DNA of 64,000 nucleotides from Bdellovibrionales bacterium (lineage in GTDB: Bacteria > Bdellovibrionota > Bdellovibrionia > Bdellovibrionales > UBA1609), in the NCBI GenBank assembly GCA_965237565.1, contig OZ250145.1:62023-126022 (forward strand), in the 5' to 3' direction. Numbering within the stretch: position 1 is the first letter of the stretch; each line of letters starts with the position of its first letter. The translations under genes were made by a program, and so were the position numbers. The notes beneath the pieces are model-generated. The model was not told the DNA's origin. It did not search any database and worked only from the letters and a program-made list of their open reading frames with translations. This document shows, piece after piece, positions 4,594 through 40,471 of the stretch.

Positions 4594-6591
4594 CTAATAT
4601 CCTATCACAATTCTAGGCTTTCTTTTCGTTTTTCTCTGTTTTACAAGTGAGAATTCCATCTTAGCTTTCACTTGTCTGGAATCGACGGTGACCACTTTAT
4701 CTCGGTAGTTACGCTTTCTGAGCATTAATGTTACAACCTGATTCTGAGGCAACTGAATCACCGTTGGCGTAAGATATGGAACTTTCTTATCGTTGAGATA
4801 AATCATCGCTCCAGAAGGTTTAGTCGCTATAAAAATTTTCCTAGTGGCAGGAGTTGCAATTGACCTAGTGGGTGTAGGAGGACCCTGAAGAGATCCCCGA
4901 GCAGGACGATGATTCACAATGGCTCCGGGTCTTTTTGGCTGGGCAACAGCTACTTTGGATTTTTTTGGAGACTCCGCTGGAGACTGTTTTTCAGCCCATG
5001 CCCCGATCTTTTCAGAGAGATAGTGACGAATATCTGACCGGAAGAAAAAAGCTGAAAAGCCAATGGAAGCAAGAAAGATTGAGGCAATTGCAATGGGAAA
5101 GATTTTTTTTGCTCTTCCCTTCCTCTTTTTGGATTTTGTTGCCTTTTTCCCCATACCACGATCGATAATCAAACTAGAATTCGTCTTTCCAATTTGACTC
5201 CTCCGGGTCAAGGGTATGATTTTGCGAAGAGGGTCCAAACCCGTAACTACCACGTTGTCATATAAACTCTTACTCAAACTTTTTATTTCAGAACCAACAG
5301 AGTGGGAGATCAATTCATCAGTGAATTTTGTTTTTGTCAATTCTTCCGATTGTTCACTCAGATCCGCTTCTGTTTCTGTGTATTGCATGTGATCAGTAAA
5401 ACTTCTGTAAATCTGTTCCGCTTCTGTTTTTGTTTCCTCTTTTTCGTCATGAATCAATTCATACGTCTCTTCTTCTTGGATTTTGCTAGGATTCTGGGTT
5501 TTTTCATGCTTTTTTTCAAGATCTTCCCTATGACCAATAAACGAGGAACTTTCATCCTCTGCAACAGAATAGTTAATGGAGCTGTTTCTCAAAAATCTAG
5601 ATGCTGCGTATGTTTCAGCCAAAGCTTCTGAATACATTTTTAACTTTTCTCTTTCTTCTAAAATTTCCTCCATGTAAATCGCTCGAATAAAAGAGCTAAA
5701 TTGATTTTGCGTAAAATTGGGATATTCTGTATTCAAAAAAACAGAGAGGTCATTCGCCATTTCTACGACAGTTTGGTATCTCAAATTACTGTTAACATGT
5801 AAGGCCCTATTTACAATCTCTATAACTTTATCCGGAACATTTGGATTGATCCTTTTCAAATCAGGAATATTGCATAGCTTGATCTTTTTCATTAACTTGA
5901 TTTCGGTGGAGGCTGTAAAAAGTTTTTGGCCGGCTAGCAATTCCCACAGTATATTTCCAATCGAAAAAATATCTGTTCTTTTATCCAGCACTTCTCCTCC
6001 CACTTGTTCCGGACTCATGTATTCGAACTTGCCTTTTAACACTCCGGCCCTTGTGGCTTCGGAATCACTCATTTTGGCAATACCAAAATCAATGACCTTT
6101 ACGTCCCCATTAAAACTAATCATTATATTTTGCGGACTAATGTCCCGGTGAATAATATTCAAAGGTTGCCCTGTAACACTATCCGTACAATTGTGGGCAT
6201 GATCCAATCCCCAGCAGATATTCCTAATAATGTGTATACATTTTTCCACACTCAGTCGCATCTTCTGGCTAGTTAGCTTTTTAATTAATTGTCGCAGGTT
6301 GCAACCGGAAATATACTCCATACAGATAAAATACTGGTCCTTTTCTAAACCGAATTCATAAATAGAACCAATGTTGCTGTGATTGAGATTGGTTACAATC
6401 TTACCCTCATTTTGAAACATCTTGTTAAATTCTTTATTGTTGGAATGAGTAGGTAATATTCTTTTAATGATGATAAACTTGTGTGCACTTTTTACAGAAC
6501 CTGTACAGCCAAGAAAAATCTCAGCCATTCCTCCGACAGCAATTTTTTTAAATAATTTAAATTTACCAAAATCTGTTACTTTTAATTTCAT
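4594..6591 (-). CDS. Hanks-type Ser/Thr protein kinase with TM helix and C-terminal PEGA-like domain
   Basis: GGMAEIF, IIIKR, HRDISPQN, DFG, GKFEYMSPEQ; TM IFPIAIASIFLASIGFSAFFF; PEGA-like IATKPSGAMIYLND..TP. Confidence 0.95.
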   Translation of the reverse strand: MKLKVTDFGKFKLFKKIAVGGMAEIFLGCTGSVKSAHKFIIIKRILPTHSNNKEFNKMFQNEGKIVTNLNHSNIGSIYEFGLEKDQYFICMEYISGCNLRQLIKKLTSQKMRLSVEKCIHIIRNICWGLDHAHNCTDSVTGQPLNIIHRDISPQNIMISFNGDVKVIDFGIAKMSDSEATRAGVLKGKFEYMSPEQVGGEVLDKRTDIFSIGNILWELLAGQKLFTASTEIKLMKKIKLCNIPDLKRINPNVPDKVIEIVNRALHVNSNLRYQTVVEMANDLSVFLNTEYPNFTQNQFSSFIRAIYMEEILEEREKLKMYSEALAETYAASRFLRNSSINYSVAEDESSSFIGHREDLEKKHEKTQNPSKIQEEETYELIHDEKEETKTEAEQIYRSFTDHMQYTETEADLSEQSEELTKTKFTDELISHSVGSEIKSLSKSLYDNVVVTGLDPLRKIIPLTRRSQIGKTNSSLIIDRGMGKKATKSKKRKGRAKKIFPIAIASIFLASIGFSAFFFRSDIRHYLSEKIGAWAEKQSPAESPKKSKVAVAQPKRPGAIVNHRPARGSLQGPPTPTRSIATPATRKIFIATKPSGAMIYLNDKKVPYLTPTVIQLPQNQVVTLMLRKRNYRDKVVTVDSRQVKAKMEFSLVKQRKTKRKPRIVIGY

Positions 6592-22626: not shown

Positions 22627-23595
22627 TTACGAAGAACCGATGACTGTAAATTCACAAGAGAGTTGGCTCAATAGGTCTTGAGCCATCTTTTTCTGATCAG
22701 GGCGATAGAGCAGATGAACATGAGATCCAGCATCCATCGTAACCAAAGGACCATCTTTTTTCTTCTCCCAAAATGTTTCCACTGTCTTAAGAATTTTTTG
22801 GCTTTCTTTATTCCTGTAATAAATGGGAGGCGAGCTGGTTTCGTAAAGCCTGTGAAGGTCTTGAAATTCTTCCCAAGTAATTTCAAAACAAAGTCTCCAT
22901 TTTTTTTCATTCAAAGCCGTCAAGAGTGCAGAAAGTCTTTTTTCAGATCTTTTTACACGATCAGAAAAAAAAGGACTGCTCAAAACTCTTTGATGGGCTT
23001 CGGAGGAAGACACTGACTTATGTTTTTCACTTGTGAGAATCAATTGGTGCATTAGGTGGGGAAAAGGCAGATCAATTTTACGGGCTGATTCTTTCTCCCA
23101 AAAACTCCAAGGCCGAAAAAAGGAACGACAAGAGGAACCGGAACCACGGCGACTGAGCGCAGACAAATCATGATCTGTGAGCGCCTCTATTCCCTCTCGC
23201 CTAGAGGGATTCGAAAGGGACAAGGCCATTTGGTAAGTGGCCAAAGTTAGGGCGCAAAAACTGGAAGCAGAACTAGCCACCCCCGCAGAGACAGGAAAAT
23301 TATTAGCCGATTCAATGAGATAGGAATCCGAAATTTTCCATTGATCTTTTAAAAATTGGAAAAAATTCAAAAACCTTTGGCTCGCTAAGAGAGACAAATC
23401 AAGTGCCAAGAATTCCTTTCTCTTAAGAGGTCCCCAGTGATCTCTTCCCACCAAACTTTTACGAATACGAACACAAGTCACCAAGTGGTCCAGAGTGTAG
23501 GATAGAGAAGCACTGATCGGGAGATTGCTTTGATCTTTTTTCCCGATATATTTAATGAGTGCAATATTGGAAGGAGCTAGAGCTTGCCAAGACAT
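22627..23595 (-). CDS. mvaD: Diphosphomevalonate decarboxylase
   Basis: APSNIALIKYIGK, NNFPVSAGVASSAS, RRGSGSSCRS, TMDAGSHVH. Confidence 0.93.
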   Translation of the reverse strand: MSWQALAPSNIALIKYIGKKDQSNLPISASLSYTLDHLVTCVRIRKSLVGRDHWGPLKRKEFLALDLSLLASQRFLNFFQFLKDQWKISDSYLIESANNFPVSAGVASSASSFCALTLATYQMALSLSNPSRREGIEALTDHDLSALSRRGSGSSCRSFFRPWSFWEKESARKIDLPFPHLMHQLILTSEKHKSVSSSEAHQRVLSSPFFSDRVKRSEKRLSALLTALNEKKWRLCFEITWEEFQDLHRLYETSSPPIYYRNKESQKILKTVETFWEKKKDGPLVTMDAGSHVHLLYRPDQKKMAQDLLSQLSCEFTVIGSS

Positions 23596-23615
23596 AGGGA
23601 AAATTCTCCAGATTT

Positions 23616-24581
23616 TTATAACTTAAAGTGATCCTCTGGTTTTGTTTTATCTTTTGTCTTTGTCCTCAAAATAGGATGATCTTTTTCCAGTTCCTCTTTT
23701 TCATGCTCATTCATTCCATAAGTGAGCTGACTGGAATCAGCCACAATGGTTTCTTCTTTGAGAGCGAGTTTTATTTCCTCTCTATTTTTTGGATCAAAAA
23801 AAACGCAAACCACCTCCGCACCCATAGCGCCACAGCCCTTGGCCACAATGACCGAAGAAATGCCATCAATTTTTTTCAGTAGCTTGTTTGTCGCCTCATG
23901 CACAAGACGTAAATTTGCCAAGCGGTCCGAGTATTCTTTCACCGCAGAAACAAAAGCATCTCGATCAAATTGATCCATAGCATTCATAGCTTCTCTTGCA
24001 ATGCGAGACAGCTCGGGCCACTCCCCTCTAGAAGAAAGATCCGTCAAATACTCCCATGTTTTCAAAGTGGCCCCTGTGCGAACCAATAGAAAATCCAAAT
24101 GTAAAAACGGCCAAGTAATGGAACGAACAGAAAAAGGCTCACAGGTAAATAAACAAACACCACCCACCCACTGAGAAACAATGTCTGCCCCTCCCGGTTT
24201 ATAACCCTCGAATTGGAGCTTTCTATAAGAACGCCACATTTGCGACAGATCAGTTTCTACCAAGGAACATTTCTTCAGAATAAGACTCAACAAATAGACT
24301 AGGTCGAACTGGGCACTGGATAAACCAAAACCTCCTTTTCCACCGTGCGGATCAATCGTTTTGATATGATAATTTTGAGTGATTTCCTCATGCTTTTTCA
24401 TCCACTGGCCGGCAGCACTATCAAAATGAAAAACCGTTCCCTCGCCATTGTTCTTTTTTTTTACAATGGAAAACCAAAATCTGGGGTGAGTGTTAATCAA
24501 AATAGAGGGAGCTCCCTCTAAAACTGCATACTCTCCAATCAAAAATGTTTTACTCGGAAAAGAAATGTATCGAGTGTCCAT
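23616..24581 (-). CDS. GHMP kinase, (phospho)mevalonate kinase-like
   Basis: PSKTFLIGEYAVL, GFGLSSA, GADI, KGCGAMGAE; mevalonate-cluster context. Confidence 0.8.
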   Translation of the reverse strand: MDTRYISFPSKTFLIGEYAVLEGAPSILINTHPRFWFSIVKKKNNGEGTVFHFDSAAGQWMKKHEEITQNYHIKTIDPHGGKGGFGLSSAQFDLVYLLSLILKKCSLVETDLSQMWRSYRKLQFEGYKPGGADIVSQWVGGVCLFTCEPFSVRSITWPFLHLDFLLVRTGATLKTWEYLTDLSSRGEWPELSRIAREAMNAMDQFDRDAFVSAVKEYSDRLANLRLVHEATNKLLKKIDGISSVIVAKGCGAMGAEVVCVFFDPKNREEIKLALKEETIVADSSQLTYGMNEHEKEELEKDHPILRTKTKDKTKPEDHFKL

Positions 24582-24584
24582 GTT

Positions 24585-26009
24585 TTAATCTGAATCCTTT
24601 TGCAATTGATCGAGCCACTTTTTGGGACTCTCTTTTAGCTCCCGAAGAGCGAGAAGAGCTTGCCTTTGGTGTTTGTCTCTTATTTTTTTAAGAGTTGCCA
24701 TAGGATTCACCGTCTTTTTTCTCAGTGCCCTCAGGGCCTCAATGGCTTGAGAAAGAGAAATACGTCTCTTGAATTCAAAAACCATTTCCAAATGTTTCTG
24801 AATGATGGGTATTTCCGATCCTTTTGCCCCAGCTCCCAAGGTGAGATTTTTGATATGCAATTTCATATGTCCTTCAATGATACCCAAGGTAGTTAAAGCT
24901 CGCAAAGCACCAAGGTTTTGCACTAAAGCCACCCCCGCACAAATACGAGCGAGACCATTTGCACCTTTTACTTTCAACATTTTTAGACACATTTTGGCCG
25001 TTGGGTGAAGACGTGTCATTCCTCCCACCGTACCCACCATCAAAGGAGCACAAAAACAACCAATCAGTTTGCCATCTGTTACTCGCCAATTGGTAATGGA
25101 TTGGTATCGCCCCTTTTGAGCCGCATAGGCATGAACACCGGCTGAAACGGCTCTCCAATCATTGCCAGTCGCAATCAAAATGCCGTCAATGCCATTCATC
25201 GCACCCTTGTTGCTGGTACTCGCCCGATACGGATCCGTCTCTGCAAACAAAGAGGCTTGTTCAATTTTTTCCATTAATTCTGGTTCTAGATCCGACATAA
25301 CAATCTCAGCCTTAATCAAGCGAGTGTCAGACAAATTGGAAACGATGCAAACAGATACTTTTTCCTCCGTTTCTGATTCAACGAAGGTACGCAGATACTC
25401 ACAAACCTGATTGACAATATTCGCTCCCATTGCATCACAAGTATTAATGAAAACGTGAATCACAGCCATTTCTCCCTTCTGAGAAGAATGTATTTTTGGA
25501 TCAACAATCAAACGACGCACAGTAAATCCTGTGACCCCTCCTCCTCGTTTGTGCATCGAGGACATTACATTCTGATGAATTTTTTCGATCCAGATTTTTT
25601 TATTCTCTTGAATAATTTTTTCTAATTTTTCGAAATTTTTTACCTGTGCTATCTGTATTTGACCAATCACTCCTTGGCCTTGCACAGAAGTTTTAATAAA
25701 ACCCTTCTCACTCACCCAACGAGCTGTCTTGCTGGCGGCAGCGATAATGGAAGTTTCTTCAACAGCCATTGGGATCACCACTCTTTGGCCATCAATGCAA
25801 AAATTGGTAGCCACTCCTAGGGGAAGCTGAAAGTAGCCAATTACGTTTTCAATAAATTTTTCAGCTAGATCAGTCTTCTTTAGTCCTCCTGATTTTAAAT
25901 ATTTCACATCCTCTGAACTCAAAGCTCCCATTTTCATCAAACGGGAAAATCTCTCGTTTAGAGATAATTTTGAAAACCCTTTGAAAAACGATTTCATTTG
26001 CTTGTTCAT
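24585..26009 (-). CDS. mvaA: Class II HMG-CoA reductase
   Basis: ENVIG, PMAVEETSIIAA, DAMGAN, NKGAMNG, GNDWRA, GHMKLH. ATG 26009 overlaps the fni stop. Confidence 0.95.
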   Translation of the reverse strand: MNKQMKSFFKGFSKLSLNERFSRLMKMGALSSEDVKYLKSGGLKKTDLAEKFIENVIGYFQLPLGVATNFCIDGQRVVIPMAVEETSIIAAASKTARWVSEKGFIKTSVQGQGVIGQIQIAQVKNFEKLEKIIQENKKIWIEKIHQNVMSSMHKRGGGVTGFTVRRLIVDPKIHSSQKGEMAVIHVFINTCDAMGANIVNQVCEYLRTFVESETEEKVSVCIVSNLSDTRLIKAEIVMSDLEPELMEKIEQASLFAETDPYRASTSNKGAMNGIDGILIATGNDWRAVSAGVHAYAAQKGRYQSITNWRVTDGKLIGCFCAPLMVGTVGGMTRLHPTAKMCLKMLKVKGANGLARICAGVALVQNLGALRALTTLGIIEGHMKLHIKNLTLGAGAKGSEIPIIQKHLEMVFEFKRRISLSQAIEALRALRKKTVNPMATLKKIRDKHQRQALLALRELKESPKKWLDQLQKDSD

Positions 26010-27049
26010 TCCCATTTCCAATCCCCAAACTTTCTCATCTCATCTATATTCTTACACCCTGAACAAAATAAAGCGATCTTTAATTCTTGTTCCAAACGAG
26101 AAAAAGTTTTCTCCAAAACATTCTCTCCTTGCAAGGCAGCTTGTATCACCGAACGAGCAAGACTAATGCGATGGGCTTTCAAAACCAAAGCCTTAGCCGC
26201 ATCACAACCACTCCTCACCCCACCGGAGGCCCATATTTCATAATCTTTGTCGATCTCCTTGGCAAAACAAAGGGAATCCACTGTAGAAATTCCCCAATCT
26301 TTAAAAGCATCTGACACACCAAAAAACAAATCATCTTTACTGGTTCTCTCTCCCTCAATACGTCCCCAGTGGGTCCCCCCATAACCGCTAATATCTAAGG
26401 CAAAAAGCCCCATCCCTACCAAGGACTTCATACTTTGTTTGGAAAAACCACAACCTGTTTCCTTCAAAATGACCGGTACAGAAAGTTTTTTGCAAAGAAG
26501 CCGAAGAGCCTTCAATCCCCCAGCAAATTGAGGGGTCCCCTCTGGTTGAAGAGCTTCTTGGAGAGGGTTGCTATGCACCACCATGGCCGAAGCTGATAGG
26601 GAAGCTACCAATTTTTCCACCACTGAAACATCGGTTCGAATCAACTGAGAGAGACCTATATTGCCTAGTAAAATCAAAGAGGGACAGGCTTTACGAATAC
26701 TTTCCCATTCTTTGCCAGCACTGGGATCAAAAATTTGTCTTCTCTGAGATCCCACACCCATCACCCAAGACCTTTTTTCACAAACACGAGCAATGGATTG
26801 ATTGATGCGCAAAGAACCTTCCCAACCTCCCGTCATCCCGCTAACAACAAAAGGAGTGGCCACCTTTTTTTCGAAAATTTCGGTGGAAATATCCACTTCT
26901 GAAAAATCCATCTCGGGCAGGGCTGAATGCATCAAGCGTATGCGCTGGAATCCACTGGCTCCAAGAGCTTCATTTTCTGCTCTCAAGGATAGATGCACAT
27001 GATCTTTTTTACGACGTGTAAACTGGGATGTGGGGTCTGTCTTTTTCAC
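26006..27049 (-). CDS. fni: Type 2 (FMN) isopentenyl-diphosphate isomerase
   Basis: RKKDH, SGMTGG, GVGSQR, NPLQEALQPEG, KETGCG, GGTHW, SGGVRSG. Confidence 0.96.
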   Translation of the reverse strand: MKKTDPTSQFTRRKKDHVHLSLRAENEALGASGFQRIRLMHSALPEMDFSEVDISTEIFEKKVATPFVVSGMTGGWEGSLRINQSIARVCEKRSWVMGVGSQRRQIFDPSAGKEWESIRKACPSLILLGNIGLSQLIRTDVSVVEKLVASLSASAMVVHSNPLQEALQPEGTPQFAGGLKALRLLCKKLSVPVILKETGCGFSKQSMKSLVGMGLFALDISGYGGTHWGRIEGERTSKDDLFFGVSDAFKDWGISTVDSLCFAKEIDKDYEIWASGGVRSGCDAAKALVLKAHRISLARSVIQAALQGENVLEKTFSRLEQELKIALFCSGCKNIDEMRKFGDWKWE

Positions 27050-27952: not shown

Positions 27953-28066
27953 ATGAAGGTCAGAACCTCTATAAAGAAAATTTGTAAAGATTGTCATGTG
28001 ATTCGCAGGAGAAACGTTTTGCGAGTGATCTGCAAAAATCCAAAGCACAAGCAAAGGCAGGGTTAA
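27953..28066 (+). CDS. rpmJ: 50S ribosomal protein L36 (Zn-binding type)
   Basis: [14 protein letters not shown]...[11 protein letters not shown]; GGAG RBS before ATG 27953. Confidence 0.97.
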
Positions 28067-28071
28067 ATTTT

Positions 28072-28446
28072 ATGTCTCGTATAGCTGGAGTGGATTTACC
28101 GAAGGACAAAAGGTTGGAAGCCGCACTGACTTACATTTATGGAATCGGGCGTGTGAGTGCTCGTGAGATTTGCAAAAAAGCGGGTTTCCCCGATTCGACT
28201 AGAACGAAAGATCTTACAGATCAAGATGTGGCAAAACTGAGAGCCTTTATCGAAAAAAATTATAAAGTAGAAGGGGATATGCGAAGAGAAATGGGACTTT
28301 CAATCAAGAGACTGATTGATTTATCTTGCTATCGAGGCTTACGACACAAAAAAGGACTCCCTGTTCGAGGACAAAGTACGAGACAAAATGCTAGGACCAG
28401 AAAAGGCCCTAAAAAAACAATCGCCAATAAGAAAAAAGCTATTTAG
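28072..28446 (+). CDS. rpsM: 30S ribosomal protein S13
   Basis: [32 protein letters not shown]. Confidence 0.98.
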
Positions 28447-28460
28447 ATAAGGGAGCTTCA

Positions 28461-28847
28461 TTGTCTGCTAGAAAGCCAAAAAAGAAGAAGGTAAAAAAGA
28501 ATGTTCCGGTTGGAAATTGTCACATTAACGCCGGCTTTGGAAATACTCATGTTACTTTTACCAATCCGGCCGGTCAGGTGGTTTGCTGGTCTTCTGCTGG
28601 CATTTTGGGTTTCAAAGGATCACGTAAAGGCACTCCATTTGTAGCCCAAGCCGTGGCTGAAGATGCGGTTCGAAGAGCCAAGGAATGTGGAATGAAAACA
28701 GTGAACGTTTTTTTGAAGGGACCGGGAGCAGGAAGAGAAATGACTGTTCGTACATTGGCCAGTGCGGGATTGAGTATCAATGTTTTACGGGATATCACAC
28801 CGATTCCTCATAATGGTTGTCGCCCCCCAAAAAGAAGAAGAATCTGA
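28461..28847 (+). CDS. rpsK: 30S ribosomal protein S11
   Basis: [35 protein letters not shown]. Confidence 0.98.
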
Positions 28848-28885
28848 AAAATAGAGCCTATGAATAAAATGAATGAAGGAGAAAA

Positions 28886-30457
28886 ATGAAGGAGAAGAAT
28901 GAAATGAAAAAAATGGAAATCAAATCTCACTACTATAAATACTGGACGGATCTCATAAGACCAAAGGGTTTTGACGTAGATAAAGACTCTCTCAGTTCTA
29001 CCTACGGCAAATTCCATATTCGACCGTTGGAAAGAGGTTACGGACTTACTTTGGGAAACGCAATTCGCCGAGTCCTCCTCAGTTCCATGATGGGTTCTGC
29101 CGTATCTGCCGTAAAATTTGATGGAATTTTACATGAATTTACTTCTATTCCCAACGTTTTAGAAGACGTAACGGACATCATTTTAAATCTGAAGCAAGTG
29201 CGTTTTCAGCAAGAAGACGCCGAAGACAAAAAAATGAAAATCAGTAAAGAGGGGCCAGGAAACGTAACGGCTAAGGATATTGAGTTGGTTTCTGGCATCG
29301 AGGTCATCAATCCCTCTCAAGTCATTGCAACGCTCGGGAAAAATGCCAAGTTTCGATGTGAAGTTTTGGTTACGTTTAACCGGGGTTATATTGAGTCTGA
29401 ACAGAAGAAAGAATATTTGCCCGTGGGATTCATTCCCATTGATTCCATTCATTCACCCATTCGTCGTGTAAACTACATGGTTGGTAACGCTCGTGTGGGG
29501 CAGAAAACAGATTACGACGCCCTCACTTTAGAAGTGTGGACGGATGGTTCTATCTCTCCAGAGCAAGCTGTCCCATTGGGATACAAAATTCTGAAAGAGC
29601 AAATTCAAGTTTTCATGAACTTTAATGAAGACATTGAGCCAAAAGAAAAACCGAGTAGCGAGAAAACCCCTCAAGTAAACAAAAATCTTTTTCGCCCTGT
29701 GGAGGATTTGGAATTATCTGTGCGGAGTGCAAACTGTTTGAAAAATGCTCGCATTCGATATATCGGAGATTTGGTTGTGAAAACAGAACAAGAAATGCTT
29801 AAGACAAAAAATTTTGGTAGAAAATCACTCAATGAAATCAAAGATATGATTAGAGAAATGGGCTTATCTCTTGGGATGATCGTGGAAGGTTGGCCTCCCA
29901 AAGACTTAAGCGCCTATGGAATGAAAAAAGAAGAAACAGATGATCCGCCGGCTTCCCCTTCTTTTACTTCTCCCATGCAAAACCAGAAGAGAAACCTAGA
30001 AGTAGGTACTCCATCTGGTTATGAAACTTCCCAACAATCTTCCGCTTCACAGCGTTTCACACAAGAGACACAAACTCCAACACAAACTCCAACACAAACT
30101 CCAACACAAACTCCAACACAAACTCCAACACAAACTCCAACACAAACTCCAACACAAACTCCACCTAAAGACACATACAGTTCACCGGAAGTAAAACTAG
30201 AAGGCGTAGGTAATGGTGATAACTTAGCGGCTTGGGGAGAAACCAAAAAACCTGAAGTGACAGCAGAAACAGAGGGTTATGTGGAAACCACAGCAATCTC
30301 AAAGCGAACAAACCTCTCTGAAAAGGAGAAAGAAGAAGTATTGAAGACTGAAAATGCTCAGGAAGATAAAGAAGCCACTTCAGCCTTGAAGAGTGCTTAT
30401 GAAGAAAGGGAGAAAAAAGACAACTCATCATCTGATTCCGATGGAAAAGAAGAATAA
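28886..30457 (+). CDS. rpoA: RNA polymerase alpha subunit with long C-terminal extension (alternative start 28904)
   Basis: [45 protein letters not shown]; ~180 extra residues after GWPP. Confidence 0.97.
30068..30163 (+). repeat. Perfect 12-bp x8 in-frame tandem repeat in rpoA encoding (TQTP)8
   Basis: acacaaactcca repeated eight times with no mismatch. Confidence 0.97.
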
Positions 30458-30489
30458 GAAAAACTGGTAAGGAGATTTTTTAATCAATC

Positions 30490-31017
30490 ATGCGACATCG
30501 AATGCAAAAAAACCCTTCTTTTGGACGACATAGAGGCCCTCGTGAGGCTCTCATCAGAGGTTTGGTAAAAACTTTGGTAGAGAAGGAGAGAATCAAAACC
30601 ACTTTAGCAAAGGCTCGATGTTTACGTCCCTATATTGAAAGGGCTATCACGATAGGGAAAAAAGGAGATATTCATTCTCGACGAATCCTAGCTTCTCGCT
30701 ACCCAGATAAAAAAACTATTCAGAAAATCATCAAGGACCTATCTCCTCGTTTCATTAATAGACCTGGTGGCTTTACACGGATCATCAAACTGGGTCCTCG
30801 TCCGGGAGATCAAACTTCCTTGGCTTTTTTGGAATTCGTAGACTACAAAATGAAAGCTCCCGTAGTGAAAAAATCGAGCGAAGAGAAAAAAACAGCAAAA
30901 CCCGTCACAACACCAGAAGGAAAAAAAATCAAGAAGCAACAACAAAGAAAAATAGACACGAAAAGAAAACGAAAACGCCAACAAAGACAAAAATCCAGAC
31001 GGATCAATCGAGATTAA
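30490..31017 (+). CDS. rplQ: 50S ribosomal protein L17 with basic C-terminal tail
   Basis: MRHR, RIKTTLAKA, RPGGFTRIIKLGPRPGD. Confidence 0.97.
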   Translation: MRHRMQKNPSFGRHRGPREALIRGLVKTLVEKERIKTTLAKARCLRPYIERAITIGKKGDIHSRRILASRYPDKKTIQKIIKDLSPRFINRPGGFTRIIKLGPRPGDQTSLAFLEFVDYKMKAPVVKKSSEEKKTAKPVTTPEGKKIKKQQQRKIDTKRKRKRQQRQKSRRINRD

Positions 31018-31035: not shown

Positions 31036-31596
31036 ATGTTTAAATCCACGCGTTTTCTCATTGTCATTATATCTCTTCTCCTTTTGCTCCCAATAGGAGG
31101 AATATTTTTCTACCGATACTTACAGAAAAAAAATGAATTGCCAGAGCATATTCAAAAAATTCAAAATATAAAAAAGGGAGATATTCAACTCACTGTTTAT
31201 GATTTGAATGAGAATGCAATTCATATTTCTTCTTTTTTGGATAAAGTTTTGGTTATCAACTTATGGGCCACTTGGTGCGCTCCCTGCATTGAAGAACTCC
31301 CTTCCCTAAATAATTTGGCCAGAACTTTTCCAGATCAGCTAGTGATTTTGGCAATCTCGACAGAACGTACAGATGTGATTGAAAATTTTCTTATGGCTTT
31401 TCGAAATTTGCATTCCAATTTCATTCCAGCAAATGTAGACCAAAAGACTTTGCGAAAATCTTTCACTATGCGAGCTTTCCCAGAGACGTATATTTTGGAT
31501 AAAAATGGGAAGCTTTCTCACAAAATACTAGGTCCGCAGAAATGGGATTCTAAAAAATGGAAACAAAAAATCAAATTGCTTGTTGAAGCCGATTGA
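31036..31596 (+). CDS. TlpA/ResA-family membrane-anchored thiol:disulfide oxidoreductase
   Basis: N-terminal TM, NLWATWCAPCIEELPSL, FPETYILD. Confidence 0.9.
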   Translation: MFKSTRFLIVIISLLLLLPIGGIFFYRYLQKKNELPEHIQKIQNIKKGDIQLTVYDLNENAIHISSFLDKVLVINLWATWCAPCIEELPSLNNLARTFPDQLVILAISTERTDVIENFLMAFRNLHSNFIPANVDQKTLRKSFTMRAFPETYILDKNGKLSHKILGPQKWDSKKWKQKIKLLVEAD

Positions 31597-31612: not shown

Positions 31613-32263
31613 TTACACTTCTTGCATCAAGCTATCTTTGATGCGAGAAGAAACCTCCTCGGGGGAACCCTGTCCATCAATCTCAGTTAACAGGTTTTTG
31701 TCCTTGTAATAAGAAATCAAAGGAGCCGTCTGATCCAAGTAAGCTTGAAGCCTCGTTTGAACAACATCCTCTTTGTCGTCGTTTCTGTGTACCAATTTTT
31801 CACCCGTTTTATCACAAATGCCTTCGATTGTAGGGGGGGAAAATTGAATATGGTAAACATGACCGCTTTTCTCAGAGACTCGCCGGCCCACTAGCCTCTC
31901 AAGCAAAACAGATTTCGATACCTGTAAATGCAACACTCGATTGAGTTTCAAATCCATCTGAGATAACAATTCATCAAGAGCCTCCGCCTGAGCCAAAGTC
32001 CTCGGGAATCCATCAAAAATAAAATCCCTTTTTGAAGATTTTTTTAACAAAACCTCTTTGATCAATCCAATAACAACTGAATCTGGAACTAATTTGCCTT
32101 GATCCATATAAGAAGCTGCCTCCAAACCCAAGGCGCTTCTTTCTTTCACAGCTGAGCGAAAAAGATTGCCCGTACTGATGTGACGGAGCTGAAAATGGGA
32201 AATCAAATAACTAGATTGTGTCCCTTTCCCTGTTCCGGGAGCTCCAAAAAGAATGAGATTCAA
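31613..32263 (-). CDS. adk: Adenylate kinase
   Basis: GAPGTGKGTQ, HISTG, FDGFPRT, LID domain. Confidence 0.98.
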   Translation of the reverse strand: MNLILFGAPGTGKGTQSSYLISHFQLRHISTGNLFRSAVKERSALGLEAASYMDQGKLVPDSVVIGLIKEVLLKKSSKRDFIFDGFPRTLAQAEALDELLSQMDLKLNRVLHLQVSKSVLLERLVGRRVSEKSGHVYHIQFSPPTIEGICDKTGEKLVHRNDDKEDVVQTRLQAYLDQTAPLISYYKDKNLLTEIDGQGSPEEVSSRIKDSLMQEV

Positions 32264-32386
32264 ATTTCATCTCCCCAAGAAGTACATAGAAAAATTTTCC
32301 CTTCAAGTGACACATTTACAAAGGCATACACATTGCTGTGACAATTATACAAATATTGGTATGTCGGCTGCGTACATGTGGATACG

Positions 32387-33700
32387 TCAATATTGAACAC
32401 GACGACTCTTTACTCGTACACCTTTCATCAAGCCTTCATATCGAGCAGTCAAGAGATGGGACTGGATTTGTTGCGTGGTATCCAAGGCGACACCAACCAA
32501 AATCAAAAGACTGGTCCCTCCAAAATAAAAAGAGATACCCATTTCATTAATCAACAAGGTAGGAATGATACAAACGATGCTTAGATAGATAGAGCCAGCA
32601 ACTGTTAAACGATCCAAAATTCGTTTTACATAATCGGCCGTACTTTTGCCAGCACGAATACCCGGAACAAAACCACCATATTTTTTCAAATTATCAGATA
32701 CCTCGGTGGGATTAAAAACTGCCTCCGTATAAAAGAAGCAAAAGAAAACAATCAAAACGATAAATAAGATATTAAACAAAGAACCTTGAGGAGTCAGAAT
32801 GTTCCCCAGATTTTGCGCCCAAGGTTGATCCACGTACTGAGCCAAAGAGGCGGGGAAAAACAATAAGCTGGAAGCGAAAATAGGGGGGATGACACCTGCA
32901 AAATTCACTTTCAAAGGTAGATGAGAACCTTGGGTAGCCGGCTGCTTGCTCATGGACCTTTGCGAATACTGAATGGGAATTCTTCTTTGGCCTACCTCTA
33001 TGAAAATAATAATCCCCACAACCAAGAGCATAAATAAAATCAAGGCCAGGAAAATTCCATTGCTAATCTGGCCCTGTCCAATCATTCTAAAGAGATTCAT
33101 TGTAGCTGAAGGGATTCCCGCTGCAATACCAGCAAAAATAATCAAAGAAGCACCATTCCCCACACCCCTGTCGTTGATCTGTTCTCCAAGCCACATAATG
33201 AAACAAGCTCCAGCTGTCAGAGTAATGATCGTAAAGACTTCGAAAGAGAGAAATCCAATCATCGGACTGATCACCAAAGGACGACCGTCTGATGCAGTTT
33301 GTGTCAAAAGCATTTTTGCAAATCCATAACCCTGAACAATAGAAAACAAGATAGTGGAATAACGAGTGTATTGATTGATTTTTCTACGACCTGCCTCTCC
33401 CTCTTTCTTTAGTTGTTCCAGATAAGGAATACCTGTTTGAAGCAACTGGAAAACGATGGAAGCAGTAATATATGGCATGATCCCCAAGGCAAAAATACTA
33501 AATCTTTCTAAGGCGCCTCCCGTAAAAGTGTTGAGCATATTTAAAATGCCACCACCTTGGTTGGCAAAAAAAGCGAGTAGAGCTTCACGATCCACTCCGG
33601 GCGTTGGGACCTGCACGCCCACACGGTAAATAACTAGCACGGCTAAAGTGAAAAAGATTTTTTGCCTGAGTTCTTTCGGAAAAGACAAATTTTGCATCAT
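32387..33700 (-). CDS. secY: Preprotein translocase SecY
   Basis: FSIFALGIMPYITASI, WLGEQI, GNGASL, VIPPIFASS, PGIRAG, FGGTSLLI. Confidence 0.99.
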   Translation of the reverse strand: MMQNLSFPKELRQKIFFTLAVLVIYRVGVQVPTPGVDREALLAFFANQGGGILNMLNTFTGGALERFSIFALGIMPYITASIVFQLLQTGIPYLEQLKKEGEAGRRKINQYTRYSTILFSIVQGYGFAKMLLTQTASDGRPLVISPMIGFLSFEVFTIITLTAGACFIMWLGEQINDRGVGNGASLIIFAGIAAGIPSATMNLFRMIGQGQISNGIFLALILFMLLVVGIIIFIEVGQRRIPIQYSQRSMSKQPATQGSHLPLKVNFAGVIPPIFASSLLFFPASLAQYVDQPWAQNLGNILTPQGSLFNILFIVLIVFFCFFYTEAVFNPTEVSDNLKKYGGFVPGIRAGKSTADYVKRILDRLTVAGSIYLSIVCIIPTLLINEMGISFYFGGTSLLILVGVALDTTQQIQSHLLTARYEGLMKGVRVKSRRVQY

Positions 33701-34182
33701 GAACGCACGTTTCCGCCCGGTTTCTGAATAGAAGCTGAACGCATATTGATAACTTCTGCATGGCCACCAGCTTTTTCAATCAAATTTTTCGCCGACTGAG
33801 TAAACTTGTGAGCCTTCACTGTAATAGATTTGTTTAATTTTCCTTTGGTCACAATCTTAATCAAGGATCTTTTCCTTACCAACCCCGCTTTACACAAACT
33901 GGAAGGATCTACTTCAGAACCAAACCGGTTCAAATCTGAAAGACCTACGAGATCATAATGAGTTTTGAAACGTTTGTTGGTAAATCCAAATTTTGGCAAG
34001 CGACGAACCAGTGGAACTTGCCCCCCTTCAAAACCTCTTTTCAAACTGAAACCAGAACGAGATTTTTGGCCTTTGTGTCCCTTGGTAGAAGTGCCTCCGC
34101 GACCACTTCCTATTCCTCTTCCCAAACGACGCCTTTTCTGACGAGAACCGGGAGCAGGTTTTAATTGAGCCAAAATATTCAT
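33697..34182 (-). CDS. rplO: 50S ribosomal protein L15
   Basis: GRGIGSG, GHKGQKSRSG, FEGGQVPL.RRLPK.GF. Confidence 0.98.
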   Translation of the reverse strand: MNILAQLKPAPGSRQKRRRLGRGIGSGRGGTSTKGHKGQKSRSGFSLKRGFEGGQVPLVRRLPKFGFTNKRFKTHYDLVGLSDLNRFGSEVDPSSLCKAGLVRKRSLIKIVTKGKLNKSITVKAHKFTQSAKNLIEKAGGHAEVINMRSASIQKPGGNVRS

Positions 34183-34186
34183 ATCA

Positions 34187-34375
34187 TCACTCCTTATCTA
34201 CAGACTCCACAGACAAAAGATGCTTCACTTTGTTGATCTGCCCTTGTACCGCCGAGTGGGAAGAAAGCACAACAGATTGGCCAATTTTTCTCAAGCCCAA
34301 ACATCTCACAGCTGCCTTTTGTTGTTTTGTACTGCCAATTAAACTTCTTTTCAGAACGACCTTTACCTGACTCAT
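34187..34375 (-). CDS. rpmD: 50S ribosomal protein L30
   Basis: [25 protein letters not shown]; operon position. Confidence 0.95.
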
Positions 34376-34947
34376 TCTTTCACCTTTTGTTTTTCTTCAT
34401 GTTCTTTCTCACTCGAATCTTTTTCGTTCACTAGCTTTTTTTCTTTTTTCGATGCAAAAAATTTCTTATTTTCATTCACATGTTCTTCCATCAAAATCAA
34501 CTGTTTCAAACCATTGAGAGTCGCATTCACGACATTGCGAGGATTACGACTGCCAATTCTTTTTGTCAGTATGTCTTTTACACCGATACATTCAAGCACA
34601 GCCCGAACCGGACCGCCAGCAATCACCCCTGTTCCGGCAGAGGCAGGCCTCATGATCACAGAAGAAGCACCAAACTTCCCAGTAATCTCATAAGGGATGG
34701 TTCTTTGATCTTTTAAAAACACTTTTATGAAAGATTTCCTCGCAAGGCGGGTAGCTTTGTTAATTGACTCAGGAACTTCACTCGCTTTTCCCGTGCCAAC
34801 ACCCACTTGGCCTTTTCCATCCCCTACTACCACCAATGCGGAAAAAGAAAATCGGCGCCCACCCTTTACCACTTTCGTGACGCGATTGATGGTCACCACT
34901 CTTTCATTAAACTTTTCTTGCGTGTTTTGCCGTCTTTGTACTTGCAA
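34372..34947 (-). CDS. rpsE: 30S ribosomal protein S5 with charged C-terminal tail
   Basis: [30 protein letters not shown]. Confidence 0.98.
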
Positions 34948-34955
34948 AATTCCCC

Positions 34956-35327
34956 CTAAAAAATCAAACCATTCGAGCGAGCTGCATCGGCCAAAGCCTT
35001 GACTCGACCATGATAAAGAAAACCATTTCGATCAAAAACCACTTTTTGAATTTTTTTTGTTTGTGCCAATTTCGCTATCTTTTTTCCAAGCGCTCCAGCA
35101 CCCTTGCAATTTGCTTTCTCTCCTTCCAAGAGAAGAGTGCTAGACTCCGTCAACACATGGCCAGAAACGTCATCCACAAGCTGTGCATAAATGTGCTTTT
35201 GAGAACGAAACACCACCAATCGAGGTCTTTCCTTTGTACCGAAAATTTTTTTCCTCAAACGAGCTTTATTTCTCAATCGCCTTTTCAACTTCAAAGGCAT
35301 ATTTTTATGAATCTCAATACGAATCAT
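34956..35327 (-). CDS. rplR: 50S ribosomal protein L18
   Basis: [33 protein letters not shown]. Confidence 0.98.
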
Positions 35328-35329
35328 TT

Positions 35330-35872
35330 TTATTTGTCTCCACTCGATTTTCCCGCTTTGCGGCGAATGACCTCATCACTATAACGAATTCCCTTCCCTA
35401 AATAAGGTTCCGGTTTTCTCCAACTTCTAATCTTGGCAGAAAATTGACCGACTATGGCTCGATCCGCTCCCGATATGATAATACTACTCTTCTCTACTTT
35501 TACTGTGATTCCTTCTGGAATCTCCATTTTCACGGGATGAGAATATCCCAGCTTCATATTCAAAAATTTACCAGACACGCTGGCTTTATAACCCACCCCT
35601 TTGAAAAGAAGAATTTTCTTCCAACCCTCAGATACACCCACCACAGCATTATGAATCAACATACGATAAAGACCATGATAGCAACGACTTTTGATTTCAT
35701 TATTTTTACGCAACAAAACAACTGTCCCATCTTTTACCTGCACCGATATCACTGGATTCACTGAAATCTTTAAAAGAGTTTGTGCCGATTTTACACTCAC
35801 CTCATTGTCCTTGCTTACCTGAACTTCTACTCCGCTGACAATTGTAACTGGCTTTTTTCCAATTCTAGACAT
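35330..35872 (-). CDS. rplF: 50S ribosomal protein L6
   Basis: [31 protein letters not shown]. Confidence 0.98.
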
Positions 35873-35883
35873 TTTTCAACTCC

Positions 35884-36273
35884 TCAATACACACGGCACA
35901 AAACTTCGCCACCCACATTGGATTGCTTAGCGAATTTTCCGCTCAAAATACCTTTGTTCGTACTCAATACCAAAAGACCATAACCAGAAAGTACTTCTGG
36001 GATTTGGCTAGATCTTAGATATTGACGACAGGAAGATTTACTGACTCGGTCAATTTTCTGGATGGCTGGACGGCCTTGTTCATTATATTTTAAATAAATT
36101 CTCATAATGCCTTGCTTGCCATCGTCCACGATTTTGTAATTTTTAATATAGCCATGAAGTTTTAATTGTTCTGCAATTCCTTCCTGCATTTTGGAACTGG
36201 GGATGTCCACCTTTTTGTGCTTTGCCAAAACAGCGTTTCTAATTCGAGTGCAAAATTGACTAATTGTATCCAT
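35884..36273 (-). CDS. rpsH: 30S ribosomal protein S8
   Basis: TRIRNA, GYIKNY, LSTNKG, GGEVLCRVY. Confidence 0.97.
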   Translation of the reverse strand: MDTISQFCTRIRNAVLAKHKKVDIPSSKMQEGIAEQLKLHGYIKNYKIVDDGKQGIMRIYLKYNEQGRPAIQKIDRVSKSSCRQYLRSSQIPEVLSGYGLLVLSTNKGILSGKFAKQSNVGGEVLCRVY

Positions 36274-36293
36274 TTTTTAAAAAACTCTCTCCA

Positions 36294-36836
36294 TTAATTC
36301 TTTTTAAAAGGCATGCCCAAGGACTCTAACAAAACACGGGCCTGTTGATCCGTATTCGCAGTTGTGCAAATTGTGATATTCATCCCGCGAATCACATCCA
36401 CCTTATCATAATCCACCTCTGGAAAAATGATTTGCTCCTTAATACCCATACTGTAATTTCCATGACCATCAAAGCTTTTTGGCGACAAGCCCCTAAAATC
36501 TCTAACTTGTGGAAGAGAAAAGTGAATCAGTCGCTCCAAAAAAGTCCACATTCTTTCGGATCGTAATGTCACACAGACTCCAAGGGGAACTCCCTTTCTG
36601 AGCTTAAAATTAGCTATCGCTTTTTTGGCCTTTGTGATCACCGCTTTTTGACCAGCAATCAGAGAAAGATCTCTAGCAACATTGGTAAGAATTTTTGGTG
36701 TTTTTACCGCTTGTGGAATACACATATTCAAAACAATTTTTTGAACGGTCGGGACCTGCATCAAATTGCTAAAGGCCAATTTTTTTTTCAATTCAAATTT
36801 TATTTTTTTTGCATATTGCACTTGGATCAAGCTCAT
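36294..36836 (-). CDS. rplE: 50S ribosomal protein L5
   Basis: KIVLNM, GQKAVITKAKK, FKLRKG, RDFRG, FDGHGNY. Confidence 0.98.
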   Translation of the reverse strand: MSLIQVQYAKKIKFELKKKLAFSNLMQVPTVQKIVLNMCIPQAVKTPKILTNVARDLSLIAGQKAVITKAKKAIANFKLRKGVPLGVCVTLRSERMWTFLERLIHFSLPQVRDFRGLSPKSFDGHGNYSMGIKEQIIFPEVDYDKVDVIRGMNITICTTANTDQQARVLLESLGMPFKKN

Positions 36837-37204
36837 TACAAAACCTCCTGAGCCATTGAGATAATTTTAATGAAACTCTTGGCTCTCAGTTCCCTAGCGA
36901 CAGGACCGAAAATACGAGTCCCAACAGGCTCTTTGTTGTTATTAATAAGAACTGCAGAATTTTCATCAAAACGAATGGAAGTACCGTCCGAACGTTGAAT
37001 CTTTTGGACAGTTCTTACGATCACTGCACGTGACATATCTCCTTTTTTCACCTTTGAGTTGGGCAAAGCATTCTTCACCGAAACCACAATAATATCTCCA
37101 ATACCAGCTGTACGTCTACGGGATCCTCCAAGCACCTTTATACACTGAACGATGCGGGCTCCAGAATTGTCAGCTACTTTCAAACGAGATTGCATCTGAA
37201 TCAT
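36836..37204 (-). CDS. rplN: 50S ribosomal protein L14
   Basis: [29 protein letters not shown]. Confidence 0.99.
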
Positions 37205-37476
37205 AACTCCGGTCCCTGTTGGTTTTGCTCCACAATTTCAAACAATTTCCACCTTTTTGTTTTACTCACCGGACGAGTTTTATAAATTTTTACAACGTCG
37301 CCTATTTTTGCCTGATTCTTCTCATCATGGACCTTAAAAACAGACTTCCTGCGAATATATTTTTTGTACTTCGAGTGCTTCATCAAGCGGTAAATCAAAA
37401 CAGAGATAGTCTTGTCTGCTTTATCAGAAATAACCTGACCTTTTACAATATTGATCTGACCACGAGTTTTTTCCAT
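37201..37476 (-). CDS. rpsQ: 30S ribosomal protein S17
   Basis: [26 protein letters not shown]. Confidence 0.97.
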
Positions 37477-37914
37477 CTATGAATCTTCCTTTTTTATCTT
37501 GAGAAAATCAAACCACCCTTTTTTCTTTTTGGGCTGAGAAGATTTGTCCTCTGTTGCTTTTTTTTTCTCTATTGTTTCTTTACGTTTTTTCAATTTCAAT
37601 TTTTCAGCCTGCAAGATTTGCACTTGTTTTTCTTTTTTGACTTGTGCTTGTTTTTTAAATGAAAGTTTTTGCATTTTCTGTTTTGGCAACTCCGAAGAAG
37701 GAGTCTCCTTTGGTTTTTTGATCACAATTTTTGGCAAACCAGATAAAGCGGTTTGTATCCTAGAGATATCATGCTTGAAATTTCTCAGTTCCATCACATT
37801 GGAAAGTCTTTGCATTTTGTGTTTGATTTTTGCATTGAACAAATTTTGCCTCATTTGCACCAAACGTTTTCTCAGCTCTTGCTCTTGCAAATTTTTTATT
37901 TCTTCATATTTCAT
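37477..37914 (-). CDS. rpmC: 50S ribosomal protein L29 with ~85 aa basic C-terminal extension
   Basis: Located between rplP and rpsQ; first ~60 aa are L29-like (EL...L..LFN.K....L.N...LR..K.DISRIQT). Confidence 0.9.
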   Translation of the reverse strand: MKYEEIKNLQEQELRKRLVQMRQNLFNAKIKHKMQRLSNVMELRNFKHDISRIQTALSGLPKIVIKKPKETPSSELPKQKMQKLSFKKQAQVKKEKQVQILQAEKLKLKKRKETIEKKKATEDKSSQPKKKKGWFDFLKIKKEDS

Positions 37915-37918
37915 TGGA

Positions 37919-38326
37919 TCATATCCTAGCTAAAAACCTAGTTTTAAATGGCAGTTTATGAGAAGCCAAACGGAAAGCTTCACGAGCTTGCTCCGAAGTG
38001 ACCCCCTCAATTTCAAACAAAATTCGACCCGGTTTTATCATGGCCACCCAAAATTCCATGTTTCCTTTTCCAGAACCCATCCGCACTCCTATTGGTTTTT
38101 TTGAGATCGGCTTATCGGGAAAGATTCGTATCCATACCTTCCCTCCTCGTTTGATGGAACGAGAAATAGCGATACGACTGGCTTCAATTTGACGATCTGT
38201 CATTCGACCTGCCGACAAACTGACCAAGCCAAAATCACCAAAAGAAAGTTCTGTACCTCTTTTGGCTTGTCCTCGCAATCTCCCTCGATGGATTTTTCTC
38301 CATTTCATTTTCTTAGGACTTAACAC
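37919..38326 (-). CDS. rplP: 50S ribosomal protein L16
   Basis: [32 protein letters not shown]. Confidence 0.98.
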
Positions 38327-38981
38327 TTTTTTCCACTCCTGAAATTTCCTTTATCAAATAAACATCCCCATAGTAGATCCAAACTTTCACACCAATCATT
38401 CCATAAGTTGTGAGTGCTTCCGCGAAGCCATAATCAATGTTGGCTCGCAAAGTGTGAAGAGGAACACTTTTTTCGTTGTACCACTCTGAACGGGCAATCT
38501 CCGCACCATCCAAACGACCCGAAACACGAATCTTGATGCCTCTCACCCCTTGACGAATCGCCGCGACAATTGCCTTCTTTAGAGATCGTCTCCAAGAAAC
38601 TCTTTTCTGGAGTTGCAAGGCAATGTTTTCCGCAACTAACTGGCTGTCCATGTCTGGTTTTCTCACTTCTTGAATGCTGACGGACACTTTGTTTTTTGTC
38701 TGCTTTTGAATGTCTTTTTCCAAAGCATCAATGCCCACTCCCTTTTTGCCGATAACAAAACCCGGACGAGCTGTGAAGATTGTCAGCTTGATTTGCTCTC
38801 CAGTTCTCTCAATTTCAATCTTTGAAACACCTGAATTTTTGAGCTTGTTCTTCACATAGCGACGAAGACGATAATCTTCATAAATATTATCCGCAAACTT
38901 CTGCCCAGAAGCATACCATTTGGAATCCCAGTTACGAATGACACCCACTCTTAATCCAATAGGACTTACCTTCTGACCCAT
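38313..38981 (-). CDS. rpsC: 30S ribosomal protein S3
   Basis: [37 protein letters not shown]. Confidence 0.99.
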
Positions 38982-38983
38982 TA

Positions 38984-39316: not shown

Positions 39317-39334
39317 GAAACAATTCTCCTGTAA

Positions 39335-39619
39335 TTACTTTCTTTGCACTTGGGATTTCTTGCCCGTAACATGGGTATTAAAAATCCTCGTAGGTGCAAA
39401 TTCTCCAAATTTGTGTCCAATCATATTTTCCGATACAAAAACAGGAATGAATTTCTTGCCGTTATGAATAGCAAAAGTCAAACCCACAGCATCAGGAGTA
39501 ATGAGAGATCTCCTAGACCAAGTTTTAATGACCTTCTTTTCTCCTGTTTTTTTGGCCTCGTCGATTTTTTCGAGCAAATGATAATCTACAAAAGGACCTT
39601 TTTTCACTGATCTAGACAT
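39335..39619 (-). CDS. rpsS: 30S ribosomal protein S19
   Basis: [30 protein letters not shown]. Start moved to ATG 39619. Confidence 0.98.
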
Positions 39620-39632
39620 AGTTACTTCCCGT

Positions 39633-40469: not shown

Positions 40470-40471
40470 TA

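Follow-up and report, generated by a model that had tools for sequence, protein, structure and literature searches.

The gene for the RNA polymerase alpha subunit (rpoA, 28886..30457, + strand) in a 64,000-nucleotide stretch of a Bdellovibrionales bacterium (GCA_965237565.1, contig OZ250145.1, positions 62,023 to 126,022; the whole stretch is called the window hereafter) raises the question of why its open reading frame (ORF) does not end with the alpha C-terminal domain (CTD) but continues for another 185 codons. Alpha is the subunit that reads UP elements and contacts many activators, and its layout, in which an N-terminal domain (NTD), a linker and the CTD add up to about 330 aa, is treated as universal. 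The initial annotation, made from the letters of the window alone, had described a tail of ~180 aa behind a complete alpha-CTD, and this tail was found to be real: the motif GWPP (aa 335–338) finishes at nt 29899, the annotated tail start at 29900 is exact, and 185 hydrophilic residues, predicted to be disordered from composition and charge-hydropathy, follow (aa 339–523; 29900..30454, +) before the stop codon at 30455–30457. Comparison with relatives shows that such a tail is present in all searched species of the genus and is conserved in kind, with a middle rich in Ser/Thr/Pro/Gln (STPQ), few hydrophobic residues and a net-negative end, and not in sequence. As to its role, slightly less than an even chance is given to the reading that we prefer, in which the tail is a disordered spacer, prone to slippage yet maintained by selection, whose charged end tunes the contacts of the alpha-CTD or of RNA polymerase.

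Apart from the tail, the product of 28886..30457 is an otherwise canonical, single bacterial RpoA with NTD, insert domain and CTD. The genome is a single contig of 1.33 Mb with 38% G+C, in which rpoA gave one match. Its longest ORF of 523 aa was assigned using Pfam and NCBIfam: RNA_pol_L (PF01193, E 7.2e-22) was matched at aa 46–239 and RNA_pol_A_bac (PF01000, E 4.6e-30) at aa 76–190, i.e. the N-terminal dimerisation and insert domains (aa 46–239; 29021..29602, +), and RNA_pol_A_CTD (PF03118, E 2.5e-25) at aa 260–323, within an alpha C-terminal domain that extends over aa 260–338 (29663..29899, +) and has GWPP as its last residues. The equivalog model NF003513 was matched over aa 17–349 with 454.6 bits (cut-off 302), and TIGR02027 with 364.4 bits (cut-off 227.8). 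The true start is probably M7 (nt 28904), giving a protein of 517 aa rather than 523, since the Met starts of relatives align there and AGGAG lies 9 nt upstream of this codon; M7 is invariant in the alignment of 15 species described below. Canonical RpoA (solved full-length chains of 305–368 aa; best match 7ye1_A, 338 aa) has the same domains, is likewise present in a single copy and is followed by rplQ, but the window protein carries 185 more residues after the CTD, and none of the solved alpha chains matched past query aa 348.

Three parts were distinguished within the tail. A proximal S/T/P/Q-rich segment of 53 aa (aa 339–391; 29900..30058, +), with an STPQ fraction of 0.43 and a net charge of −1, is followed by a repeat block of 36 aa, in which the STPQ fraction rises to 0.97, and by a distal charged segment of 96 aa (aa 428–523; 30167..30454, +). 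The repeat block holds (TQTP)8, eight identical ACACAAACTCCA units at 30068..30163 (+), which the initial annotation had read as perfect 12-bp units; Tandem Repeats Finder (TRF) agreed for the assembly, reporting 30068–30163 with period 12, 8.0 copies, 100% matches and a score of 192. When the genome was searched with a two-unit pattern (≤2 mismatches), all 7 matches fell inside the array, and the reversed control gave 0. The stretch behind the repeat had been called acidic, which holds for its balance (net −10) and not for its make-up, as 25 D/E stand next to 15 K/R and the segment is really a polyampholyte. Over its 185 aa, the tail has a net charge of −12. Among 1492 ORFs of at least 100 aa, it contains the genome's top 40-aa window for S/T/P/Q (0.93), and it is therefore not merely one of many similar tails.

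Such a tail could also be an artefact of assembly or annotation, if a stop had been missed, a frameshift introduced, or the repeat collapsed or wrongly joined. For a read check, short-read contigs of public runs were used, two of which, X1 and X2, derive from one sample and are possibly the assembly's own source. Their contigs (>1 kb on each side) cover 29600–30100 and 30160–30700 and thereby carry both non-repeat parts of the tail; X1 departs from the assembly at 2 letters in the first of these stretches and at 0 in the second. The public-run contigs break within the array, none spanning 30100–30160, and at 30070 the X1/X2 contigs have G at full depth, not the A of the assembly, both of which speak for an artefact. 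Further A>G differences were present in low-depth contigs at 30115, 30118, 30127 and 30130. All A>G differences within the array are third-position and synonymous, so the array may contain small imperfections or vary within the population, and 'perfect', true of the assembly, may not be true of each molecule. The depth of a 42-nt repeat unitig (462.5 vs 106 in X1, 310 vs 51.5 in X2) fits several copies without giving their number. Two other runs, X3 and X4, which belong to a different study and organism, matched only the CTD (29603–29885, 90–95% alike) and rplQ; they leave the tail uncovered and so say nothing about it. An exact left-flank pattern of the array gave 0 matches in metagenome contigs. 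With a repeat period divisible by 3, an error in copy number could not shift the frame. The best argument against an artefact is comparative, since 15 of 15 species genomes, each assembled independently, have this architecture; an artefact is almost certainly not the explanation.

For this comparison, 41 genomes of relatives (own, genus, family and order level) were searched, rpoA being found in 41/41, and the part behind GWPP was extracted from 33 loci: 15 of the genus, 14 of other genera (L017–L030) and 4 of further lineages. All 15 searched species of the genus carry a tail, of 110–251 aa, so that the length variation suggested by the initial annotation is present between species. The 14 loci of other genera have tails of 11–35 aa, beginning with a conserved xGWDPN, and in 8 further genomes, from which tails were left unextracted, open frames of 346–372 aa imply short tails. 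Among the further lineages, the sister genus G016 has an acidic tail of 66 aa, G020 an acidic tail of 88 aa, G022 a tail of 160 aa with (PT)n and an acidic end, and G031 a very acidic tail of 219 aa with a repeat of its own. On metagenome contigs, 80 related loci were fetched, 76 of them complete, and all 76 tails are 12–44 aa long; in a phylum sample of 301 genomes, open frames of 340–409 aa were recorded among the 150 listed (147 more being unlisted).

In a maximum-likelihood tree built from the RpoA core with all 33 rows retained, the genus forms a single clade of 15 (support 99/92) whose sister is G016 (100/99), and G020, G022 and G031 branch elsewhere. On the basis of this tree, the long tail dates to the base of the genus-level clade and arose separately a few more times. 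The possibility that the tail is a fused neighbouring gene was considered and rejected, as rplQ directly follows rpoA in short-tailed relatives too. In 26 of the 27 placeable loci (of 33), with both tail types represented, rplQ starts −4 to +56 nt from the rpoA stop, the exception being L031 with 160 nt. Because this junction is tight in both tail types, the tail is taken as an extension of rpoA itself that has swallowed no neighbour.

Aligned with one another, the 15 genus proteins show strong conservation throughout the core and an almost unchanging CTD up to GWPP, where conservation ends. Behind it, composition is what the tails have in common. In 15/15, the STPQ fraction is 0.40–0.57, hydrophobic residues make up only 9–20%, and the last 50 aa are net negative; the whole tail is net negative in 14/15. 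Divided into thirds, 13 of the 15 tails carry their most negative charge in the last, and 11 have their highest STPQ fraction in the middle. Tandem repeats (TRF score ≥50) were detected in 11/15, with a unit that differs from species to species: besides TQTP, these include PVTPT (×~21), PAEQAQ (×11, L011), TPKPDVLGPS (×7.5), QTQTMSSPSVSEDQQ (×3.6), a 13-aa unit (×2.8) and EKSPV (×3.7). Every TRF period in the genus tails is divisible by 3, which also speaks for a maintained frame. The tail middle is a hot spot of in-frame replication slippage, and it is because the middle is prone to slippage that each species has its own repeat. With a period of 12 in the window and multiples of 3 in the tail repeats of relatives, slippage does not act here as on/off switching. 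Taken together, the tail is conserved in kind, with an S/T/P/Q middle, few hydrophobics and a net-negative end, and not in its sequence.

The history of the (TQTP)8 array itself could be followed with the sole relative that has an alignable island, L003. When the tails were compared by blastp, window and L003 matched over 30 aa with 50% identity (E 1.5e-6, in a small database), with an invariant Trp. The only conserved island of the window tail lies here, at aa 423–450 (30152..30235, +), reads TQ.PP..Y.SPE...VGNGD...AW and is common to L003 alone. At the position of the window's (TQTP)8, L003 has a single TQNPPP, and since the eight units are 100% identical, the array is a recent, species-specific slippage expansion of a single TQxP inside an old tail. 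The initial annotation had proposed a recent slippage expansion and, as an alternative to a regulatory tail, a neutral variable-number tandem repeat (VNTR); recent slippage stands for (TQTP)8 itself, and the neutral VNTR does not extend to the tail as a whole, as set out below for selection.

As an observation on the rest of the genome, large tandem arrays of coding type were recorded outside the window: one with a 108-nt unit in 17.8 copies at 759.8 kb (759791–761707), and several Trp-rich arrays of 15-nt period near 397–400 kb (397099–400477).

Conserved islands within otherwise unalignable tails are what would be expected if the tail were a docking platform, on which short linear motifs recruit lineage-specific partners (regulators, RNA-processing or ribosome-coupling factors) and the repeats are spacers. 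Two motifs fit this picture: F[GHR]F[SA] was found in 8 of the 15 tails, at tail positions 19–37, and [TSHP]Y[TNA][VIF] in 6, both confined to one 9-species subclade and standing at similar distances from GWPP. To these come the 30-aa island with its invariant Trp in window and L003 and, in L002, L004 and L005, a C-terminal acidic run after which stand an aromatic residue and Q. Both motifs were, however, chosen after seeing the data, they are restricted to the one clade, within which related species inherit them by descent, and neither FxFS nor YTV occurs in the window tail; no partner is known, and none was searched for. Docking as the main role is improbable on this evidence.

Selection on the tail was assessed from its reading frame and from substitution rates. 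The coding frame contains 0 stops in 15/15 tails, compared with 0–24 stops in each of the other two forward frames; at 38% G+C, a stop is expected about every 15 codons in a random frame by our estimate. The ratio ω of nonsynonymous (dN) to synonymous (dS) substitution rates was analysed for the 8 closest of the 105 genus pairs, of which L006/L007 is the sole pair with unsaturated dS, the other 7 having a dS above 1.2 or undefined. For this pair, ω is 0.03 in the core (332 codons) and 0.28 in the tail (171 aligned codons, 26 gap columns; bootstrap 0.19–0.41), with 0.36, 0.25 and 0.28 in its proximal, middle and distal sub-regions, respectively. The dN of the tail is ~11 times that of the core (0.191 vs 0.017). 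The tail thus evolves fast, yet is not neutral. Because it is retained in 15/15 species, has no in-frame stops and shows an ω of 0.28, it is more than a neutral VNTR and is kept by selection in our reading. Two points weigh against this: the tail ω rests on one species pair, and the alignment of low-complexity sequence biases dN downward.

The contrary reading is that of nearly neutral, tolerated low-complexity DNA, in which slippage expansions accumulated in small-population lineages with reduced genomes and have no role in transcription, the frame being open only since stops would disturb the expression of rplQ or because sticky sequences are purged. It accounts for the unalignable sequence past GWPP, for the high tail dN and for a repeat that differs in each species. 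Repeats abound throughout the genome (255 TRF rows over 1.33 Mb), and rplQ begins 32 nt past the rpoA stop. Most long-tailed lineages are, moreover, small-genomed (1.3–2.3 Mb in the genus, 1.5 in G016, 1.6 in G020 and 1.8 in G031), with the exception of G022 at 3.1 Mb, and G018, G027 and G038 have short tails at 2.1–2.3 Mb. Polarity on rplQ alone, however, would not constrain amino-acid changes, and the bootstrap upper bound of the tail ω remains at 0.41. Layout and composition are kept in most of the 15 species, 330–750 extra bases are retained in all 15 genomes although these measure only 1.3–2.3 Mb, and short conserved islands are present, namely F[GHR]F[SA] in 8/15 (post hoc) and VGNGD..AW shared with L003. 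Neutral tolerance is rather unlikely when these are weighed together, and a tail maintained by selection is preferred.

The disorder prediction proposed by the initial annotation was carried out at the level of composition: by charge-hydropathy, 13 of the 15 genus tails, the window tail among them, are classed as disordered. AlphaFold2 (AF2) contributed less. Modelled alone from the single sequence, the tail reached a predicted template modelling score (pTM) of 0.16 with no fold and one helix only, a possible single charged helix of low confidence at the E/K-rich end (aa 479–511, i.e. tail residues 141–173; 30320..30418, +). Its block-mean predicted local distance difference test (pLDDT) score is 56–65, and it is absent from the full-length model. 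The latter, computed from a 15-sequence alignment, had a mean pLDDT of 47, low even in known domains, with 33–46 in the tail, and is too poor to count. Given the low confidence of both AF2 models, disorder is supported by composition and not by structure, which has to be held against the preferred reading of a disordered spacer. No Pfam domain above its cut-off was found within the tail; a pAdhesive_10 match at aa 441–511 (E 0.0014, 19.3 bits, below the cut-off of 27) was treated as chance.

A repetitive, disordered tail that contains Ser, Thr and Pro is known from eukaryotic RNA polymerase II (Pol II), whose Rpb1 subunit ends in heptad repeats, and disordered S/T-rich tails are typical kinase substrates. 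The initial annotation had accordingly considered a Pol II CTD-like, modifiable tail and linked it with a Hanks-type kinase encoded in the same window, so that the kinase would write TP and SP sites and thereby regulate transcription. The likeness to the Pol II CTD is that a subunit of RNA polymerase ends in a repetitive, predictedly disordered tail with Ser, Thr and Pro. The kinase is present (4594..6588, −; Pkinase E 4e-40), being one of two Pkinase genes in the genome, and the window tail has 12 [ST]P dipeptides where 4.2 are expected, a count that 0/1000 shuffles reached. The tie between the two did not survive comparison. The kinase lies 23 kb from rpoA on the opposite strand, and a match to it (E ≤ 1e-10) was found in 41/41 relatives, including those with alpha tails of 11–35 aa where these were measured; no tail-specific kinase was found among these genomes. 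Nor does the Pol II analogy hold otherwise: the extended subunit is a different one, within the genus no repeat unit is conserved between species (15 tails, TRF), and one species repeats PAEQAQ, a unit without Ser or Thr. The count of [ST]P is enriched (≤22/1000 shuffles reaching it) in only 5 of 15 tails, L012 having a single site, and the TQTP array is missing in the closest alignable relative, L003. The proposed alignment of related RpoA therefore upheld the tail, in 15/15 genus species, and not the conservation of its TP motif and repeat unit. Bacterial Hanks-type kinases are, moreover, not known to be proline-directed. A phosphorylation code of this kind is decidedly unlikely, and under the preferred reading the TP dipeptides would simply come with a spacer rich in Pro and Thr and hold no message for a kinase.

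A broader version of the analogy was considered as well, in which the alpha tail, two per enzyme, would be a fast-evolving disordered platform comparable to the Pol II CTD that recruits factors or clusters RNA polymerase, is tuned by Ser/Thr phosphorylation or by charge, and uses its repeats as the adaptive, rapidly retuned part. This version is a long shot. If it were true, the sporadic basic, acidic and P/T-rich alpha tails of other phyla would be independent inventions of one principle.

In the preferred reading of a maintained spacer with a charged end, the tail would be an extended, flexible spacer, two per enzyme, each bearing a charged, net-acidic end. The charged end would be the working part, folding back transiently on basic surfaces, the first candidate being the DNA-binding face of the alpha-CTD to which it is tethered. 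Such folding back might damp non-specific contacts between alpha-CTD and DNA, or modulate contacts with partners. The repeat-bearing P/T/Q-rich middle would only set reach and solubility, for which reason its sequence and length would be free to drift under this proposal. This particular mechanism, a flexible spacer with a net-acidic end that folds back on basic surfaces, is possible, although we hold it to be doubtful.

The best precedent at hand for a charged tail that acts on the enzyme's nucleic-acid-binding surfaces is the C-terminal region of B. subtilis delta (RpoE; residues 91–173), which is disordered, has a net charge of −47 and acts on RNA polymerase (PMC7749165). Like it, the alpha tail is attached to RNA polymerase, has a negative net charge and is predicted to be disordered; delta differs as a separate subunit with a folded domain of its own, with no P/T/Q repeat spacer and no sequence relationship.

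Several observations weigh against the proposed mechanism. With −12 over 185 aa, against −47 over 83 aa in delta, a DNA-mimic role would be weak by comparison, and the distal 96 aa, at net −10 with 15 K/R, are only mildly acidic. One tail of the genus (L008) is even net +1. The idea that the tail replaces a lost region 1.1 of sigma70 was rejected, region 1.1 being present in 41/41 relatives; the tail is therefore no substitute for a lost acidic module.

Region 1.1 scores were seen to vary between the relatives, with 19–32 bits in the genus, ~23 bits in G020 and G022 and 27–54 bits in most short-tailed relatives, and with 48 bits in the long-tailed G031. Lower scores may merely reflect the faster evolution of small genomes.

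How unusual a long alpha tail is was examined in a survey of RpoA, which took 1994 proteins at E ≤ 1e-30 and covered the best 150 of their 50%-identity representatives, 12 sequences being inspected. Most of these best 150 are 317–365 aa long, and about 9 of them, one being a genus member, have by our arithmetic at least 90 aa behind the CTD. The metagenomic proteins P0084, P0101, P0142, P0152, P0154, P0165, P0194 and P0225 share with the window protein an overhang of ~90 aa or more. In P0084, a GWPP-type CTD is followed by 267 aa rich in A/P/S that contain a repeat of their own; P0154 and P0165, from other lineages, have basic tails of ~160–180 aa, rich in Lys, Ala and Pro, with a histone H1-like look; those of P0194 and P0225 are strongly acidic, and those of P0101 and P0142 apparently helical, as judged by eye. 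None of these long tails can be aligned with the window tail, and their chemistries differ. Long alpha tails are thus rare but recurrent. In the same survey, another metagenomic RpoA of 404 aa, P0103, was seen to have an apparently tandem double alpha-CTD.

Searched alone against 5.8 billion proteins, the window tail gave no match with an RNA polymerase alpha domain or name among the 80 matches listed (E ≤ 0.01), and a search of the ESM Atlas with the tail gave no usable match. Those of the tail-only matches that are annotated belong to unrelated families, among them CBM2 glycoside hydrolases (cellulases, xylanases) and kinases. Secreted glycoside hydrolases carry PT linkers, and the tail resembles these linkers in composition, the matches bearing PF00553 together with PF00150 or PF00331 (aligned segments uninspected). 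Such interdomain linkers, however, join two folded domains of secreted proteins, whereas alpha is cytoplasmic and has nothing folded after the tail, where the tail-only model has one low-confidence helix. In the literature, no description of long or disordered C-terminal extensions of alpha was found; supplements and subscription journals lay outside the search, so that an undescribed status is unproven.

The 110–251 residues, predicted to be disordered, that every searched species of the clade adds behind the CTD show that the C-terminal end of alpha can bear extra fast-evolving modules. If the tail tunes the contacts of the CTD with DNA or with partners, it would be a cis-acting counterpart of factors like delta and a natural system for the evolution of a disordered tail on an essential, conserved machine; if it is merely tolerated, it would be a clean case of an essential protein growing by slippage in reduced genomes. 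As the organisms are uncultured, the practical weight of either is limited.

With respect to the neighbourhood, rpoA is preceded by the genes for S13 and S11 and followed by rplQ (L17; 30490..31017, +), which starts 32 nt past the rpoA stop. The cluster rpsM-rpsK-rpoA-rplQ lacks rpsD (S4) at the place between rpsK and rpoA, where the S11 stop (28847) is followed by the start of the rpoA ORF (28886). An Rfam scan gave only a distant tRNA as match, and promoter-like and terminator-like sites showed no excess over shuffles. The block rpsM-rpsK-rpoA-rplQ on the + strand (27991–31017) faces an S10/spc/secY/adk block on the − strand (31613–42517), with a thioredoxin-like ORF (31036–31596) between the two.

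Extended ribosomal proteins were also observed. L17 (175 aa) has a basic tail of ~58 aa beyond its Pfam domain, with the end KSRRINRD, and Lys/Arg-rich L17 tails, many with a KKSRRINR end, occur order-wide in nearly all of 30 readable loci; the basic L17 tail is an order-wide trait that is unconnected with the alpha tail. The L29 ORF (37477–37914, −) encodes 145 aa, in which the L29 domain takes up only aa 3–56 and is followed by ~85 Lys-rich residues. Elsewhere in the window, a GreA gene is located at 18868–19413, and genes of the mevalonate pathway, for HMG-CoA reductase and diphosphomevalonate decarboxylase, at 22627–26018 (−).

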